This document shows positions 47,544-60,342 of a stretch of DNA of 64,000 nt, in pieces. Each line of letters starts with the position of its first letter. Position 1 is the first letter of the stretch. This DNA comes from Candidatus Omnitrophota bacterium (GTDB lineage: Bacteria; Omnitrophota; Gorgyraeia; Gygaellales; Profunditerraquicolaceae). Position numbers and translations under genes: made by a program. Below the pieces are notes generated by a model that did no database searches, was not told the origin of the DNA, and worked only from the letters and a program-made list of their open reading frames with translations. The stretch is taken from contig JBAZNG010000001.1 of NCBI GenBank assembly GCA_041649385.1, positions 3,427-67,426 on the forward strand, written 5' to 3'.

Positions 47544-50500
47544 CTAAACCCCCGCGGCAACCGGCTCTTTTTGCGCTTGGTTCTGTGAGAATTTTACCGA
47601 AACTATCTTAGAAACTCCTGACTGCTGCATAGTGATGCCATACATGACATTGGCGTTGGCAATCGTCTTTTTATTATGCGTGATCACGATAAACTGCGAT
47701 GTCCTGGAGAACTCCTGCAGGATGCGCGAGAACCTGTCTACATTGGCTTCATCAAGAGCAGCGTCAATCTCATCAAGTATGCAGAATGGCGAAGGCTTAA
47801 CCTTAAAAATAGCGAAGATCAGCGCGATCGCCGACATGCTCTTTTCTCCTCCGGACAATAACAAAACATTCTGCAGTTTCTTTCCCGGAGGCCGGCAGAT
47901 GATCTCAATACCGGATTCTAAAGGATCCGACTCATCGGTCAAGAATACCTGCGCGTCTCCGCCGTTAAAAAGCAGGCGGAAGTAATTACGGAACTCTACT
48001 TTCACCTTCTCAAATGTATCCATGAACATCTGTTTTGTCGTCCGGTTGATCTTTAAGATCGCCTGGTGCAGCGATTCTTTGGCGCTATTTAAATCTGTCT
48101 GCTGCTGAATGAGAAAATCGTAGCGCTGCTTAAGCTCATCATACTCCTCTATGGCGACTAAATTCACCGAGCCGTAGGAATCCAGCTTCTCCTTAAGCTT
48201 TGTTATCTCCCCATTCAAAACCTGCCTGTCTTGCTGCTGCACATTGAGAATCTGCGTATCCAGGTCGACTTTATAGCTGTTTTGCATCCGCTCCTTGATA
48301 TTGGTGTAGCGGTAATCCACATCCTTATCCTGCATCTGGAGATCATGCAGCTGGGATTTAATCAGGTCCATCTCTTTACGGCCAGCCTCTATTTTTCTTG
48401 CTGCTTCCACGGTAGAGCTGGATATCTGTTCATATTCGGCGTCCATCACGGTTAATTTTTCTTTATTCTCAAGGATATCCTTGGTTGCCTGTTCCTTATT
48501 CTTCTGGCATTCTACGATCTCGGCTTTCAGTGTTTCCTGAAGCGCATTTCCGTCAGTAATCTGCCGCTGAATATGCTCAAGCGCTTCCTCATCCTGCGTA
48601 CAAGTCTCCTGAATAATCTTTAAAGTCGCCGCGTCTGAACTTAAACGCCTGGTCAAGGCCTCGATCTCCGTCTTAGTCTGCGTGATCACAACCAAAACAT
48701 CTTCTCTTAACTTGCTTTTTAAAGAAATCACGTCCTCATCCTGCAGGATCTGGTCTTCGATCTGCCTCTGCTTGCTGCTCAAGGCAGTAAGCCTGGATTG
48801 AGCGTCAACAAGGTTCTGCTCCAATACAGAGATCTCGCGGGATACATCGCCTAACTCCATGACAATGACATCCTCTTCTTCCTTGATCTTATTGAATTGC
48901 TCGGATATCGCCGCGAAACTTGACTCCTTGTTCGCCAGAGAGATCTCCTGGTTGCGCAGGTCCTGGCCGAGGCTTTCGGCCATCTTGGACAATTCAGATA
49001 TACAGCTTTCCCTCAATACCTTCTTGTTCCTCAATTCACCCAGGCGCTCCTCCAGATCCTTGATCTTCTCGTCGATCCTGGTTGTGTCCAACTCTATGGG
49101 CTTGGCTTCCCCGCTTAATTTAAACCCCTCGCCGCTTCTTTCAGTATCACCGAATGAAGAACTGACTTTGACCACCAGGCCGGAAACAGTATCCCGGGGC
49201 ATTTTATCAAGGTAGATCACGGCATTCAGCGCCGGGCCTATATCATCATATTTATTTTTCAGCTTCTCCAGGAACTCTTTATGAGAAGCCAAAGTAAGCT
49301 TTTCATTCTCCAGCGCCGAGATCTCCGTATTGATCGTATTTAAATTTATGCCTTCCTGGTCAAGATTTTCCTTTACCTTGGCGATCCTGGAATTTAACTC
49401 ATCAAGTGCCAGCTTAACCGTTTCCAGCTCAAGGCTGACCTTCTTGAAATTCTCCTCGGTGATAGCCTTCTCTTCAAAAACCTTGGCTTTCTCGATCGCC
49501 AGGCGCTTCTTACGCGCCAGGTAAACCTGGTGCTTGGAATTGATATCTCCGATCTCGTTCTTTGCCGCGGCGACTTGAGAAGCCAAATCCAGGATAGTCT
49601 TTTTGCCCTCAACGATCGCCTCAAGCAGGCCTTTGATCGTGACGCTAATCGCGTTGATCTCTTCTTCTTTCTGCGCCAGAGTGATATTCTTCTCCTCGCT
49701 AACCTGCTGGATGCTATCGTGTTCGGCTTTTACTTTTTCCAGTTTTTCCTGATCCTGCAATAACTTGGCTTTAGCCTGTTCGATTTGGCTGTTCAAGATC
49801 TCCCGGCTGGCGTTGATCTCGGCGATCCTGTCCTCGTCAAACTTGATATGCTCATCATTGCGTACCAGGCTGTTTTCCAGGTTCAACACCTGGCCCTTTA
49901 AAGCCATCATCTTCTCTTCAAATTCTTTAAGCTCGGACTGGCGGTTAGAGATCTTCTCTTCCTGCTGCCGGATAGTTTCCAAAAGGGAATTCTGGCTCTG
50001 TTCAAGGCCTGAAATAGAGTTGACCAGTTCCTCTTTTTGTTTAAGCAAATCTGTCTTTTCCAGGAGTGCGGAATCAATCTCTTTGGTTTTCAGCTCTTCA
50101 AAGACTTCTTTGTACCTGCGCGCCTTGTTCGCCTGGCGCTCTAAACTTCCGATCTGGCGTTTGACTTCAACGACAATGTCATTTACGCGCAAAAGATTCT
50201 GCTGCGTTTCTTCCAATTTACGCATTGTTTCCCTCTTTTGCGCTTTATACCTTGTAATACCGCTTGCTTCGTCAAAAACTAACCTACGGTCATCGGGCCG
50301 CGAGCTTAACACAAGGTCGATCTTGCCCTGCGCAACTATAGAGTAACTCTCTGCACCGATACCCGTGCCAAGCAACAGATCCAGTATATCCTTAAGCCGC
50401 ACAGTCGACTTATTGATCATGTATTCGCTTTCACCTGAACGAAATATCCTGCGGGTGATCACCAACTCCGGATGGTCAATATTAAAAAACCGGTTCTGGT

Positions 50501-50756
50501 TATCAAAAGAAAGGCTCACTTCTGCCATGCTCAACGGCTCTTTATTGTCGGCGCCGTTAAAAATGACATCCAGCATCTCTGAACCGCGCAAAGACTTTGC
50601 GGATTGCTCGCCAAGCACCCAGCGTATGGAATCAAAAATATTGCTTTTACCGCAGCCGTTAGGGCCGACTACGGCGGTAATCCCCGGCTCAAACTCAAGG
50701 ACTGTTTTTTCGCAGAAAGACTTAAAACCTACAAGCTCAAGTTTTTTAAAATACAT
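47544..50756 (-). CDS. smc: chromosome segregation protein SMC
   Basis: 1070 aa, Walker A GPNGCGKSN, long coiled coils, hinge, signature LSGGEKS and Walker B. Confidence 0.95.
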   Translation of the reverse strand: MYFKKLELVGFKSFCEKTVLEFEPGITAVVGPNGCGKSNIFDSIRWVLGEQSAKSLRGSEMLDVIFNGADNKEPLSMAEVSLSFDNQNRFFNIDHPELVITRRIFRSGESEYMINKSTVRLKDILDLLLGTGIGAESYSIVAQGKIDLVLSSRPDDRRLVFDEASGITRYKAQKRETMRKLEETQQNLLRVNDIVVEVKRQIGSLERQANKARRYKEVFEELKTKEIDSALLEKTDLLKQKEELVNSISGLEQSQNSLLETIRQQEEKISNRQSELKEFEEKMMALKGQVLNLENSLVRNDEHIKFDEDRIAEINASREILNSQIEQAKAKLLQDQEKLEKVKAEHDSIQQVSEEKNITLAQKEEEINAISVTIKGLLEAIVEGKKTILDLASQVAAAKNEIGDINSKHQVYLARKKRLAIEKAKVFEEKAITEENFKKVSLELETVKLALDELNSRIAKVKENLDQEGINLNTINTEISALENEKLTLASHKEFLEKLKNKYDDIGPALNAVIYLDKMPRDTVSGLVVKVSSSFGDTERSGEGFKLSGEAKPIELDTTRIDEKIKDLEERLGELRNKKVLRESCISELSKMAESLGQDLRNQEISLANKESSFAAISEQFNKIKEEEDVIVMELGDVSREISVLEQNLVDAQSRLTALSSKQRQIEDQILQDEDVISLKSKLREDVLVVITQTKTEIEALTRRLSSDAATLKIIQETCTQDEEALEHIQRQITDGNALQETLKAEIVECQKNKEQATKDILENKEKLTVMDAEYEQISSSTVEAARKIEAGRKEMDLIKSQLHDLQMQDKDVDYRYTNIKERMQNSYKVDLDTQILNVQQQDRQVLNGEITKLKEKLDSYGSVNLVAIEEYDELKQRYDFLIQQQTDLNSAKESLHQAILKINRTTKQMFMDTFEKVKVEFRNYFRLLFNGGDAQVFLTDESDPLESGIEIICRPPGKKLQNVLLLSGGEKSMSAIALIFAIFKVKPSPFCILDEIDAALDEANVDRFSRILQEFSRTSQFIVITHNKKTIANANVMYGITMQQSGVSKIVSVKFSQNQAQKEPVAAGV

Positions 50757-50814
50757 TCATCTTCCTCCAATTCTCTGCATCTATTATATTTTAACTTGCT
50801 AAATTTATCTTTTG

Positions 50815-50863
50815 CTTTTCCCTACATTCTACCTGCCATCTACTACCTACCCCCTAATCTGTA
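50815..50863. repeat. CTAC-rich intergenic repeat, copy 4
   Basis: ttttccctacattctacctgccatctactacctaccccctaatctgtacta between HTH gene and smc. Confidence 0.85.
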
Positions 50864-51049
50864 CTAATGAGCTTGGTTCTCCAGCCACGCATCAATTTTA
50901 TCTTTTTTAAAACGCCACTGCCCGACGAGCTTTAGCGCCGGTATCTTATTATGTTTAAGCCAGTCATAGATCGTCCTACGGGTCACTTTCAGGTAATCCG
51001 CCAGATCCTCTATTGTCATCAAGTTTGCATTGACCATTATTCTCTCCAA
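50864..51049 (-). CDS. excisionase-family helix-turn-helix DNA-binding protein (61 aa, TTG start)
   Basis: MTIEDLADYLKVTRRTIYDWLKHNKIPALKLVGQWRF matches the excisionase/MerR-superfamily HTH_17 pattern. Confidence 0.75.
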   Translation of the reverse strand: MERIMVNANLMTIEDLADYLKVTRRTIYDWLKHNKIPALKLVGQWRFKKDKIDAWLENQAH

Positions 51050-51168
51050 ATATTATGTTTGCATTATAAATAGTAAAATAATATTTGTCAAGAGAATATT
51101 TACATTCTTTAACATATGTTATCAAATTAGTATGATAATAGACACATTGATACATAAACATACATAAA

Positions 51169-51300
51169 ACCCAGACCGTTTCTATATAACTATCTGGGAT
51201 ATATGTAGATATAGCAGAACTGTCCCCGAATGATACAATGGGGACAGTTCTATCATAACTTAAGTCATACCAATATGATAAATAGAAACGGTCTAGATTG
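51169..51300. repeat. Nested palindromic (MITE-like) element: outer IR AGACCGTTTCTAT / ATAGAAACGGTCT enclosing 12 bp stem hairpin agaactgtcccc-N12-ggggacagttct
   Basis: Seen directly; right half duplicated at 51718-51777. Confidence 0.7.
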
Positions 51301-51303
51301 GCG

Positions 51304-51714
51304 TTACAGAGGAGTAAGAATACCGCCGGTTGAGGCTGTATAAGTAACATTACCGGTTGTGCCCAGGGTTACCGGTGAAGCGACAAATGTGTAGCCGGTT
51401 ATATCCGCGGTACAACTGTAGTTATAACCCTGTATCTGCGTCTGGCTGCCGGAAGCATCAGCGCAATAGTTGGGGGCGGAGTTGATAAAACTCTGCAGCT
51501 CAAAAACAGTGACCGGATAATGCCCTAAAGAAACTGAAGCGGTTTCCGCCGCATTGGCCAGCGAACGAATATTGCCTTTTGCTGCTGCTTCATTAGCAGC
51601 CCTCTTCATAGCGATCAGGTTTGGAATAGCAATAGCGGCAAGCAGGGAAATAATTCCCACAACAATCAATATCTCCACTAAAGTAAAGCCTTTGCTTTGA
51701 GCAAGCTTAGCCAT
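51304..51714 (-). CDS. type IV pilin / pseudopilin with class III signal peptide (G|FTLVEIL)
   Basis: MAKLAQSKGFTLVEILIVVGIISLLAAIAIPNL N-terminal methylation motif, Thr/Gly-rich C-terminal beta domain. Confidence 0.85.
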   Translation of the reverse strand: MAKLAQSKGFTLVEILIVVGIISLLAAIAIPNLIAMKRAANEAAAKGNIRSLANAAETASVSLGHYPVTVFELQSFINSAPNYCADASGSQTQIQGYNYSCTADITGYTFVASPVTLGTTGNVTYTASTGGILTPL

Positions 51715-51717
51715 AAA

Positions 51718-51777
51718 GGGGACACTTCTATTCTAACTTATTCCATACCAATGAGATAGATAGAAACGGTCTAGATT
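51718..51777. repeat. 60 bp direct repeat of the right half of the 51169-51300 element (about 87% identical), immediately upstream of pilin ATG
   Basis: ggggacacttctattctaacttattccataccaatgagatagatagaaacggtctagatt vs 51241-51300. Confidence 0.75.
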
Positions 51778-52978
51778 ATTTTCTGAGCGCCTCTTTGAAG
51801 GCTTTGGTTAAGGCAGGGACAACCTCAAAAAGGTCTCCGACTATCCCGTATGTAGCCACTTTAAATATAGGTGCCTCGGGATCTTTATTGATCGCCACAA
51901 TGATCTTGGAAGACTGCATGCCCACAAGATGCTGGATCTGGCCGGAAATACCACAGGCAAAATATATCTTCGGCCCGACTGTGCGTCCGGTTTGGCCTAC
52001 CTGGTGCGAATATGGCATCCATCCTGAATCAACCGCTGCGCGGCTTGAACCCACAGCTGCTCCTAAAACATGCGCCAGCTCCTCAAGTATCTTGAAATTT
52101 TCATGATTGGCCATACCGCGGCCTCCGGAAACAATGATATCCGCTTCAGAAAGGTTCACCGTAGATTCGATCTCTTCAACAATATCCAGTAATTTAGTAC
52201 GGGAAAAATAAAGTGATTTGTCAAAACTTTCACGGATTATTTTACCTTTGCGTTTTTTATCAGCTGGCAAAGGCGTAAAAACTTTATGCCTGACAGTAGC
52301 CATCTGCGGGCGGTAATTCGGCGAGATTATCGTCGCCATAATATTGCCGCCAAAAGCCGGGCGCGTCTGCAGTAATATTTTCTTTGTTTCATCAATATCT
52401 AAACCCGTGCAATCCGCGGTAAGCCCAGCCTTGATATTAATGGCCACCCGTGAGATCAAAGACCTACCTATGTTAGTTGCCCCGCATAAAAATATCTCCG
52501 GTTTATATTTCTTGATCAGTTCAACAAGAATATTAGTGTAAGGCTCATCCTGGAAATTCGCCAGCTCCGGCGCTTCAACCAGGTAAATATTATCCGCGCC
52601 GCAGAAAGTTAGTTCATCAAGCTGGTCCTCAAGTTTATCCCCGATCAGAACGCCGCTTACCTGGCAATTAAGTTTCTTGGCTAATTCCTGCGCCTTGCCG
52701 AGCAACTCATAAGAAACTGACTGCACCCTGCCGTTCTTCTGCTCAATGAACACCCAGATGCCTTTATGATCTTTGATATCCGGCAACTCACACTTAGCAG
52801 GAGTTTTCTCTAAAATGATCGCCTTGAATTTACAGGCATCCTTGCAGGCTCCGCAAAGCGTGCATTTATTCAGGTCTATCATCGCCTTTTTGTCCATCAT
52901 GCGAATGGCATCAAACGGACAGGCCTTAAAACATAATGTACAACCGGTGCACTTCTCAATAATGATCTGTATAGACAT
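51776..52978 (-). CDS. etfA: electron transfer flavoprotein alpha subunit with N-terminal 2x[4Fe-4S] ferredoxin domain
   Basis: CTGCTLCFKACP and CTLCGACKDAC clusters followed by EtfA FAD-binding domain. Confidence 0.88.
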   Translation of the reverse strand: MSIQIIIEKCTGCTLCFKACPFDAIRMMDKKAMIDLNKCTLCGACKDACKFKAIILEKTPAKCELPDIKDHKGIWVFIEQKNGRVQSVSYELLGKAQELAKKLNCQVSGVLIGDKLEDQLDELTFCGADNIYLVEAPELANFQDEPYTNILVELIKKYKPEIFLCGATNIGRSLISRVAINIKAGLTADCTGLDIDETKKILLQTRPAFGGNIMATIISPNYRPQMATVRHKVFTPLPADKKRKGKIIRESFDKSLYFSRTKLLDIVEEIESTVNLSEADIIVSGGRGMANHENFKILEELAHVLGAAVGSSRAAVDSGWMPYSHQVGQTGRTVGPKIYFACGISGQIQHLVGMQSSKIIVAINKDPEAPIFKVATYGIVGDLFEVVPALTKAFKEALRK

Positions 52979-52980
52979 AT

Positions 52981-53763
52981 CTAGTTAACCTCGTTCTTGA
53001 TCAAAGAAACCAGTTCTTTAGCGATTTCCACTGTTTCACCCTTTAATATCTGTCCGCCGGTCCTCTGGGCAGGCGTGAATATCTTGACTACCTGTGTAGG
53101 CGAACCGCATAAGCCGATCTGCTGCGGATCAAGGTTTAAATCCTTCTGGCCCCAGGTAACGATCTTAGCGCTTTTTGAACGCATCATACCTTTTAAAGAA
53201 GGTATACGCGGTTCATTGATCTCCTTGACTACTGTAAGTAAAGCCGGAAGCGGGGTTTCAATGATCTCAAAGCCTTCTTCAAGCATTCTTTCAACGCGCA
53301 TGGATTTATCCGTTGCTTCCTCAACTTTCTTCACATAAGTTACTTGAGGGATATTCAAGTGCGTGGATATGCCCGGCCCGACCTGCGCGGTATCTCCGTC
53401 TGAAGCCTGTTTGCCGCAGATCACCAGGTCATATGCGCCGATCTTTTTTATCGCCCCGGCCAAAGTATAACTTGTCGCCCAGGTATCGCTGCCGGCAAAA
53501 GCGCGGTCGCAGATAAGGAAACCCTCATCAGCTCCCATGGATATTGCCTCACGCAAAGCCGCGTCAGCCTGCGGAGGCCCCATAGAGATTATGGAGACTT
53601 TTCCGCCAAACCTCTCCTTTAGGCGCACCGCTTCCTCAATCGCGTACATATCAAAAGGGTTAATTATTGATTTGACCCCTTCGCGGATAAGCGTATTTGT
53701 TTCAGGATTAATCCTCACCTCTGTTGTCTCTGGTACCTGTTTGATGCAAACAATTATATTCAT
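52981..53763 (-). CDS. etfB: electron transfer flavoprotein beta subunit
   Basis: 260 aa EtfB. Confidence 0.9.
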   Translation of the reverse strand: MNIIVCIKQVPETTEVRINPETNTLIREGVKSIINPFDMYAIEEAVRLKERFGGKVSIISMGPPQADAALREAISMGADEGFLICDRAFAGSDTWATSYTLAGAIKKIGAYDLVICGKQASDGDTAQVGPGISTHLNIPQVTYVKKVEEATDKSMRVERMLEEGFEIIETPLPALLTVVKEINEPRIPSLKGMMRSKSAKIVTWGQKDLNLDPQQIGLCGSPTQVVKIFTPAQRTGGQILKGETVEIAKELVSLIKNEVN

Positions 53764-60079: not shown

Positions 60080-60081
60080 AT

Positions 60082-60342
60082 TTACCCCGTTAGAGATAGG
60101 AAACGCTTCAAGCGATTCTTCAGATAACGCTTCCCCATTCCAGTTTTTAAATATCTTTCTCTAGTAAATGCGTCTTCTTTATTAATACAGCCTTCATAAT
60201 AAATTAATTCAAAAGGACATCTATTTTTAGTTGATGTTACTCGTCCTTCATTGTGCTCAATGAAGCGTTTCCGTAAATCACCGGTTGTGCCGGTGTAAAA
60301 CTTGTTGTCTTTTCTACTCCTGATTACGTAAGTGTATACCAT
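60082..60342 (-). CDS. GIY-YIG nuclease superfamily small protein (YhbQ/UPF0213-like)
   Basis: 86 aa, VYTYVIRS...KFYTGTTGDLRKRFIEHN = GIY-YIG core with Arg and Glu catalytic residues. Confidence 0.8.
   Translation of the reverse strand: MVYTYVIRSRKDNKFYTGTTGDLRKRFIEHNEGRVTSTKNRCPFELIYYEGCINKEDAFTRERYLKTGMGKRYLKNRLKRFLSLTG

Follow-up and report, generated by a model that had tools for sequence, protein, structure and literature searches.

Three 60-nt repeats around a type IV pilin gene of an Omnitrophota genome most likely belong to a dispersed REP/REPIN-type family

Background

Published descriptions of repetitive extragenic palindromic (REP) sequences, of the doublets known as REPINs and of the REP-associated tyrosine transposases (RAYTs) (PMC5581495, PMC3337134) match the system described here, in which three 60-nt repeat units surround a type IV pilin gene in a 64-kb stretch of a Candidatus Omnitrophota genome (hereafter the window, meaning the whole stretch that was analysed). 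In Escherichia coli, REP sequences and bacterial interspersed mosaic elements (BIMEs) are, as here, short extragenic multi-copy repeats often found in inverted pairs, and the gene of the ca. 160-aa HUH Y1 transposase TnpArep (4ER8) lies, like its counterpart here, between two inverted repeats. Compared with the E. coli REP, the present unit measures ~60 nt instead of ~35 nt, is only a weak palindrome when alone, and differs in its end sequences, with no GTAG 5' motif; its host belongs to the uncultured phylum Omnitrophota, and its module occurs in several contexts in the manner of an insertion sequence (IS).

The REPINs of Pseudomonas fluorescens SBW25 (PMC3116915, PMC3337134) share with the present family inverted doublets with a short spacer that form near-perfect long hairpins, singlets beside doublets, variable centres with conserved ends, and gain and loss between relatives. 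The doublet is longer here (~132 nt versus ~89 nt). Elements of the IS200/IS605 group likewise have a Y1 HUH transposase, no visible target-site duplication and a module that is mobile as a whole. However, the protein found here falls below the NCBIfam cut-off for IS200 and above that for RAYT, no tnpB accompanies it and, unlike the module described below, IS200/IS605 elements have no long inverted terminal copies.

The Correia elements of Neisseria and the Rickettsia palindromic elements are small non-autonomous palindromes that lie beside genes and can supply terminators or alter expression, and those of Rickettsia can also insert in frame into coding sequence. Both families rely on other or unknown transposition machinery, typically with terminal inverted repeats and target duplications, whereas a Y1 transposase partners the present family, for which target duplications are not visible. 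Finally, the likeness to pilE/pilS gene conversion in Neisseria and to Piv inversion in Moraxella is superficial and consists of repeats beside a pilin gene; at this locus, no silent cassette, invertase, recombinase or within-strain variant arrangement was found.

Results

Repeat units and their family

In our reading, to which we give a probability of about 0.85, the three 60-nt units (A, B and C) belong to a dispersed extragenic family of the REP/REPIN type in Omnitrophota and the pilin is an ordinary resident gene. The gene order on the minus strand is etfB (52981-53763), a ferredoxin-fused etfA (51776-52978), the pilin gene, a gene of the HTH_17 (helix-turn-helix) family and smc (47544-50756). 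The units and the pilin gene are placed as follows, the E values being those of a family hidden Markov model (HMM) that holds no window sequence:

51716 to 51780, minus strand: REP unit C, a singlet (60-nt unit 51718-51777), E = 1.1e-14
51304 to 51714, minus strand: resident type IV pilin or pseudopilin-like gene, 136 aa, outside the repeat element, with matches to Pfam N_methyl and TIGR02532 and a typical prepilin N-terminus
51236 to 51301, minus strand: REP unit B, first arm of the doublet (60-nt unit 51240-51299), E = 9.4e-13
51228 to 51239, no strand: 12-nt spacer (hairpin loop) between A and B, from arm comparison and folding
51167 to 51231, plus strand: REP unit A, inverted arm of the doublet (60-nt unit 51168-51227), E = 2.5e-12

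The outer end of unit C overlaps the etfA stop codon while its GTCCCC end faces the pilin ATG, from which it is separated by 3 nt; 4 nt separate the pilin stop codon from unit B.

The units are members of a dispersed family, referred to below as type 1. Scanning metagenome contigs with the pattern GACCGTTTCTATN{28,34}GAANTGTCC returned 62 contigs, ca. 54 of which carry true family members, and the HMM built solely from these metagenome copies recognised A, B and C (E = 1e-12 to 1e-14) but no other place in the 64 kb. In the family consensus, tc.AGACCGTTTCTATtTaacc...cAat.aGTTa.gaTAGAAcTGTCCCC, the ends are invariant and the centre is variable. The census outside the window comprises 96 units on 55 contigs, arranged as 20 tail-to-tail doublets like B/A, 14 inverted pairs that face each other across an open reading frame (ORF), and 28 other units. 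The family is extragenic: when the window's three are added, 92/99 units are intergenic, and two of the seven exceptions are A and B themselves, which overlap nothing but a spurious ORF of 124 aa. Relative to the genes beside them, units are found in either orientation, and among the ~54 contigs with repeats a pilin adjoins a repeat at two loci only, which are orthologous. A type-1 doublet is also present in a named Omnitrophota genome (L030; L numbers designate related loci and contigs).

Together with two flanking contigs, L154 and L157 (17 kb), the window covers ca. 81 kb of this genome. The further copies that the preliminary description of this DNA had proposed to look for do exist, both on the 55 contigs above and in this genome itself, where a fourth type-1 unit lies 3.6 kb past the window's right end (L157:6168-6229, E = 3e-16). 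It sits in frame within the priA ORF, where it encodes DGDSSIVTCSAPSGKIETVL directly before a degenerate Walker A region, an arrangement comparable to the in-frame insertions of Rickettsia. On the left side of the window, the adjoining 7 kb contain no repeat units. In the window, the 18-mer ATAGAAACGGTCTAGATT occurs three times when up to three mismatches are allowed, versus 0.04 expected.

Two direct repeats of 60 bp with ca. 87% identity had been reported on either side of the pilin gene; they are real, but the identity of B and C is 85% (51/60), the coordinates were one base off, and there are three copies and not two. A is 70% identical to each of B and C. The arms of the palindrome noted at this place (51168-51227 and 51240-51299) are 70% complementary around the 12-nt spacer, with two perfect stems, an inner one of 12 bp (GGGGACAGTTCT) and an outer one of 13 bp (AGACCGTTTCTAT). 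The nested palindrome with its 12-bp perfect hairpin was thus correctly recognised, its far arm being the third, inverted unit, and its likeness to a miniature inverted-repeat transposable element (MITE) holds in the form of a REPIN-type doublet. The exact ends common to A, B and C are AGACCGTTTCTAT ... AGAA(C/G)TGTCCCC. As RNA, the B/A doublet folds into a 132-nt hairpin (-54.7 kcal/mol, z = -7.0), after which the gene strand reads GGGUUUUAU (51164-51172).

Transposase module

The inverted pairs flank a transposase gene. Each of the 14 encloses an ORF of ~163 aa, with 487-595 nt between the two units. Its product matches Pfam Y1_Tnp (E = 3e-20), reaches 99.1 bits on the NCBIfam model for REP-associated tyrosine transposases (NF047646, cut-off 80) and 42.4 bits on the IS200 model (NF033573), below the cut-off of 55; the best PDB match is 4ER8, the E. 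coli TnpArep, and all 14 ORFs retain the HxH and YIHxNP motifs. A REP-transposase-REP block of ~690 nt is shared at 92-94% identity by three contigs of one metagenome series, which are not assignable to genomes; it stops at the outer ends of the units, beyond which the flanks are unalignable. Since such a block is found in unalignable flanks and since L139 carries a truncated second copy, the module may still act as an insertion sequence. RAYT-like genes also occur in the named Omnitrophota genomes L014 and L083, and L095, which has a REP-flanked transposase, shares synteny, at ca. 70% identity, with the region of ribosomal-protein genes in the window. A classical MITE derived from a DDE element was rejected as filled and empty sites, when compared, show no target duplication and the parent ORF encodes a Y1 transposase.

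The pilin slot in relatives

Species-representative genomes scanned with EtfA yielded 80 loci, nearly all of which are labelled Candidatus Omnitrophota and among which the order etfB-etfA-[gap]-HTH-smc is widely conserved. This pilin occupies the gap in 5 of the 80 species representatives, a patchiness that would suit a mobile cassette. Its orthologues (72-92% identity), however, all sit in the same etfA-pilin-HTH-smc slot (L084/85, L086/87, L088-91, L159, L061, L012, L022, L028 and L055), as do the closest homologues, P0001 (90%), P0005 (84%) and P0018 (72%) at the protein level and L159 (92%) at the nucleotide level, and they do so with no window-type repeats (L084/85, L088, L012, L022, L028) or with other repeats (L159, L086, L061). 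The state of both sides of the pilin in informative relatives, in which type 2 designates a separate repeat family described further below, is the following:

L084/85: pilin 90% (protein); upstream, no units; downstream, no units
L159: etfA 95% and pilin 92% (nt); upstream, type-2 doublet; downstream, empty site
L114: pilin 83% (nt); upstream, type-1 doublet; downstream, empty site
L160/161: ca. 84% and 81% (nt); upstream, C-like unit; downstream, doublet with arms swapped relative to B/A
L086 and L061: pilin 81% and 76% (nt); upstream, type-2 elements; downstream, one type-2 copy in L061 and none in L086

In these relatives, units are gained and lost around a pilin that stays in place. The site of unit B is empty in L159, L114 and L084, which read 'TAACGCCAATCC...' where the window reads 'TAACGCCAATC[TAGACCG...'; over its full length, the downstream site is TAACGCCAATCCCGAACTCGTATTTTCCCC in L159 and TAACGCCAATC[TAGACCG...CGGTCTGG]GTTTTATG in the window. 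Alignment of empty and filled sites defines the doublet as a clean insertion of ca. 127 nt, and no target-site duplication is visible in these aligned sites. The presence of the pilin had been expected to vary across relatives, and it does, but it is the pilin that is stationary and the repeats that come and go. The unit is dispersed instead of being unique to its positions here, and the pilin is variable instead of being present in all relatives of an invariant locus.

One further locus, L098 (Ga0172381_10126036), carries a 95%-identical copy of C at the same place. Its contig is a mosaic, in which the etfA end is 95.8% identical to L159 and the sequence from ca. pilin codon 9 onwards is 96.2% identical to L022, with a junction that falls in the REP unit and the conserved N-terminus of the pilin. 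L098 may be an assembly chimera or reflect real recombination within the pilin, and its mosaic nature weakens it as evidence for an orthologous copy of C.

In a plain neighbour-joining tree of EtfB and EtfA (simple distance, no support values), the pilin-bearing species fall in one terminal clade, interleaved with pilin-less species, and the window is sister to L084. This pattern fits inheritance of the pilin in place with repeated loss. Within the strain, four independent assemblies that are 99.9% identical show the identical arrangement, and the pilin is present in all contigs with an identical HTH protein that reach the slot; these being short-read assemblies, rare structural variants could escape.

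In most loci, 7 bp to ~1.8 kb separate etfA from the HTH gene; two distant loci have a larger gap. What fills it differs between lineages: this pilin, another type of prepilin, a gene with a PilZ domain, an extracytoplasmic function (ECF) sigma factor, or nothing. PilZ cargo was identified with Pfam in L032, L039 and L062, with similar ORFs in L033, L035, L038, L040, L042, L043, L051 and L053; an ECF sigma factor with a putative anti-sigma factor in L020, with a similar ORF in L021; and a different prepilin gene of 160-171 aa (Pfam N_methyl) in L006, with a similar ORF in L011. In L083, a RAYT-like gene of 327 aa occupies the gap, and after it comes a duplicated 3' fragment of etfA.

As for the pilin itself, the ORF at 51304-51714 is real, as proposed, on the basis of its Pfam N_methyl match and prepilin N-terminus. 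All window genes that were domain-scanned are housekeeping genes and none is a pilus assembly gene, in line with the context given in the preliminary description. The sole gene of pilus machinery seen near the window encodes a T2SSE (PilT/PilB-type) ATPase of 348 aa (L154:15690-16736), ca. 5-6 kb past the window's left end, and is flanked by genes for the large and small subunits of an aconitase-family (LeuC/LeuD-like) enzyme. Elsewhere in the window, an 86-aa ORF with a GIY-YIG domain lies between pgk and tpiA (ca. 60080-60340; L001:1373-1633) in a run of glycolytic genes.

HTH gene, promoter and smc

The region downstream of the doublet had been described as an AT-rich island with an excisionase-type gene of 61 aa. 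Three features occur there:

50864 to 51037, minus strand: HTH_17 (excisionase/MerR-like) gene, 57 aa, core smc neighbour, HTH_17 E = 9e-18
51063 to 51091, minus strand: sigma-70-type promoter of the HTH(-smc) unit, TTGACA-17-TATAAT, 12/12 consensus match, outside the repeat system
51093 to 51108, minus strand: AGAAT-N6-ATTCT inverted repeat, operator-like and conserved, immediately 5' of the -35 hexamer

The ORF and its domain are real, but the actual start is the ATG at 51037, which gene callers choose and relatives share, giving 57 aa; a Shine-Dalgarno sequence, GGAGAG, lies at 51042-51047, and the TTG at 51049 taken earlier as the start falls inside it. The protein matches the excisionase-family domain TIGR01764 (57 bits), a point in favour of a mobile cassette, and its score on the MADS1 model, 69.9 bits, does not reach the cut-off of 80. 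As the excisionase (Xis) of a mobile element it was nevertheless rejected, the domain being real but the gene being a core gene upstream of smc and no integrase lying beside it. Indeed, it immediately precedes smc in 47 of the 64 loci in which etfA is followed by smc, most of which have no pilin.

The AT-rich island is also real, with a GC content of 21.7% at 51020-51139 (ca. 25% had been given); since a 12/12 promoter match lies inside this stretch, its core is the conserved promoter of the HTH gene and lies outside the repeat system. A comparable TTGACA-N17-TATAAT promoter is found upstream of the HTH gene in 49/50 related loci, and the motif AAAGAATGTAAAGATT (up to three mismatches), which holds the AGAAT/ATTCT inverted repeat, in 46/50. 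With its own conserved promoter and operator-like motif, this core smc neighbour does not support the proposal that the HTH protein controls a pilin cassette; it may be an autoregulated partner or regulator of smc.

In ten relatives (L006, L009, L029, L036, L037, L046, L048, L054, L056 and L058) the N-terminus of SMC is split, residues 1-44 being followed ca. 1.65 kb further on by residues 38-200, which looks like an intein or another insertion at the Walker A region. The smc gene of the window is uninterrupted.

Other repeat families

Type-2 elements, GTATTTCT...ACTGTCTAC, are found in L061 and in pilin-less relatives. Their consensus, GTAGACAGTCTAyGTAAC...GTTACrTAGACTGTCTAC (GTAGACAGTCTA...), is palindromic. 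Homology to the window units was rejected, as an HMM of type 2 only gives E = 2.5 on them, and type 2 is therefore treated as a separate family. A type-2 doublet and a singlet occur in the same genome as the window (L157:8800-8925 and 1117-1170). In L061 (1359-1490), a copy of ca. 125 nt lies between MFS and MarC genes, which in this genome, near 57.4 kb, are separated by a 47-nt spacer; in L014, a type-2 unit is found ca. 60 nt upstream of the RAYT-like ORF.

A third family of dispersed hairpins, GGGGACGGTTCT...AGAACCGTCCCC, frequently with a T-run behind it, was seen in L029, L007, L010, L012, L016 and L023, with five intergenic sites within 13 kb of L029 (321-362, 1539-1568, 5163-5185, 7212-7254 and 12550-12582). 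In several species it stands directly after the etfA stop codon, and its arm resembles the GGGGACAGTTCT end of the window unit.

Discussion

The autonomous form of the family would be the ~690-nt module in which two inverted units surround a Y1 (HUH) tyrosine transposase gene of the RAYT class. As the B/A doublet has the same arrangement minus the transposase gene, it would represent a non-autonomous, MITE-like derivative, and C a solitary copy. The units would have arrived in the two short intergenic spacers, or decayed there, around a long-resident pilin, which, with units in both spacers, looks like a bracketed cassette. By analogy with IS200/IS605 and TnpArep, mobilisation would take place in trans, through action of the transposase on hairpins of single-stranded DNA. 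The pilin ATG lies 4-9 nt past the etfA stop codon in several relatives, suggesting that the pilin is co-transcribed with etfBA, in which case C would lie in the intercistronic leader and the B/A hairpin with its U-run would likely form the 3' end of the transcript, or stabilise it, ahead of the HTH promoter.

Several observations weigh against this interpretation. A single unit is only a weak palindrome and folds no better than shuffled sequence (z ~ -0.3). RNAalifold gives a consensus energy of -0.27 kcal/mol with zero compensatory pairs, and a hand-drawn stem of 15 pairs, although paired in 85% of cells versus 34-47% in slid controls, displays no covariation; on these last two grounds the unit was rejected as a structured RNA. 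The similarity of B and C (83-85%) exceeds that of most family pairs (median 68%, 99th percentile 85%), so the two probably have a recent local origin in common, or were made alike by gene conversion, and are not fully independent arrivals. Three of the four type-1 copies in the ca. 81 kb of this genome are at the pilin locus. The data on the REP-transposase-REP module suggest that it is multi-copy and IS-like, unlike a classical single-copy RAYT. Finally, neither the window nor its 17 kb of flanks (L154, L157) contains a transposase gene, so mobilisation in this genome is assumed.

Among the alternatives, all of them improbable, one is that C and B render the pilin excisable, via the Y1 transposase or by recombination, which we regard as unlikely. 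If true, populations would mix piliated and pilin-less cells, and fixed deletions would explain both the patchy distribution of the pilin and the lone repeat kept in several pilin-less relatives. In a weaker version, the repeats would be co-opted to set the expression of the pilin relative to etfBA.

Slightly less likely still is that the units are locally evolved regulatory DNA, such as a duplicated promoter, leader or terminator, whose similarity to sequences elsewhere reflects a shared motif. C adjoins the start codon of the pilin, the strong B/A hairpin is followed by UUUU, other GC-rich hairpins with T-runs stand at the same position in related species, and B and C are unusually alike. 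However, the occurrence of units in both orientations to neighbouring genes, of fourteen pairs around a transposase gene in a module that moves as a block, and of one copy in frame inside priA does not agree with such an origin. A promoter was rejected, C containing no sigma-70 or sigma-54 consensus and promoter-like matches in the region being at chance level (5 versus 3.3 expected). Besides the absence of covariation, there is no Rfam match to the units: at the gathering threshold, Rfam detected only two tRNAs elsewhere in the window, and a permissive scan of 50700-51900 returned one chance miRNA match. A co-opted role as a terminator would be compatible with the dispersed-family reading and is not a rival to it.

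It is likewise improbable that C and B are remains of a tandem pilin array, or drive recurrent deletion of the pilin by homologous recombination. Direct copies, belonging to another repeat family, also flank the pilin of L061; a single one of these is retained at the slot by several relatives that lack the pilin, and the scatter of pilin-positive species within one clade suggests repeated loss. Yet no relative has two tandem pilins, the singlet carried by pilin-less loci is of type 2, for which no relationship to the window units is detectable (E = 2.5), this strain yielded no deletion variant, and the tree invoked is the plain neighbour-joining tree without support values.

The preliminary description had proposed a mobile or phase-variable pilin cassette or a pilin-switching locus, with the HTH protein in control; on this view, the repeats would be attachment or recombination sites and the palindrome a recombinase target. 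The direct repeats do bracket the ORF at 3 nt and 4 nt, and inversion of the gene between A and C, which form an inverted pair, is conceivable in principle. Against this, the repeats are dispersed, transposase-linked and almost never beside pilins, and no recombinase or integrase was found among the domain-scanned window genes or in the flanks. An invertible or excisable cassette (Piv, Hin, shufflon, or integrase with Xis) was rejected for want of a recombinase there and because the four assemblies are 99.9% identical in arrangement, rare variants aside. The silent pilin cassettes that had been suggested as a check are absent: tblastn, blastn and a prepilin-motif scan found no silent or partial pilin copy and no second prepilin in the window and its 17 kb flanks, so pilE/pilS-type variation was discarded for lack of donor copies there. 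Integron attC cores (GTTRRRY / RYYYAAC) are missing in and at the edges of the units on both strands, and no integrase occurs among the domain-scanned window genes, so an integron gene cassette was rejected. With a pilin that keeps its slot while the repeats vary, the mobile cassette is largely refuted and is the least probable of all these explanations, and the absence of any recombinase or silent copy in the ca. 81 kb, and of arrangement variants among the four assemblies, speaks against pilin switching.

Conclusions

Identification of the repeats removes a false lead, in that the locus is not one that switches or mobilises a pilin. For annotation, it illustrates that such repeats can mimic cassette boundaries; they may also seed chimeras in metagenome assemblies, of which L098 is a possible example.

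A REP/REPIN-type family with its Y1 transposase is hereby documented in Omnitrophota, an uncultured phylum, and we found no paper joining RAYT or REPIN with Omnitrophota in the literature consulted. The family is of note for its 60-nt units, which are unusually long, and for their invariant and asymmetric ends. Its turnover is fast, relatives with ca. 95% identity in etfA differing in their repeats at the same sites. Finally, the module seems still to move as a block and resembles the IS-like stage that has been proposed as the origin of REPINs (PMC3337134).

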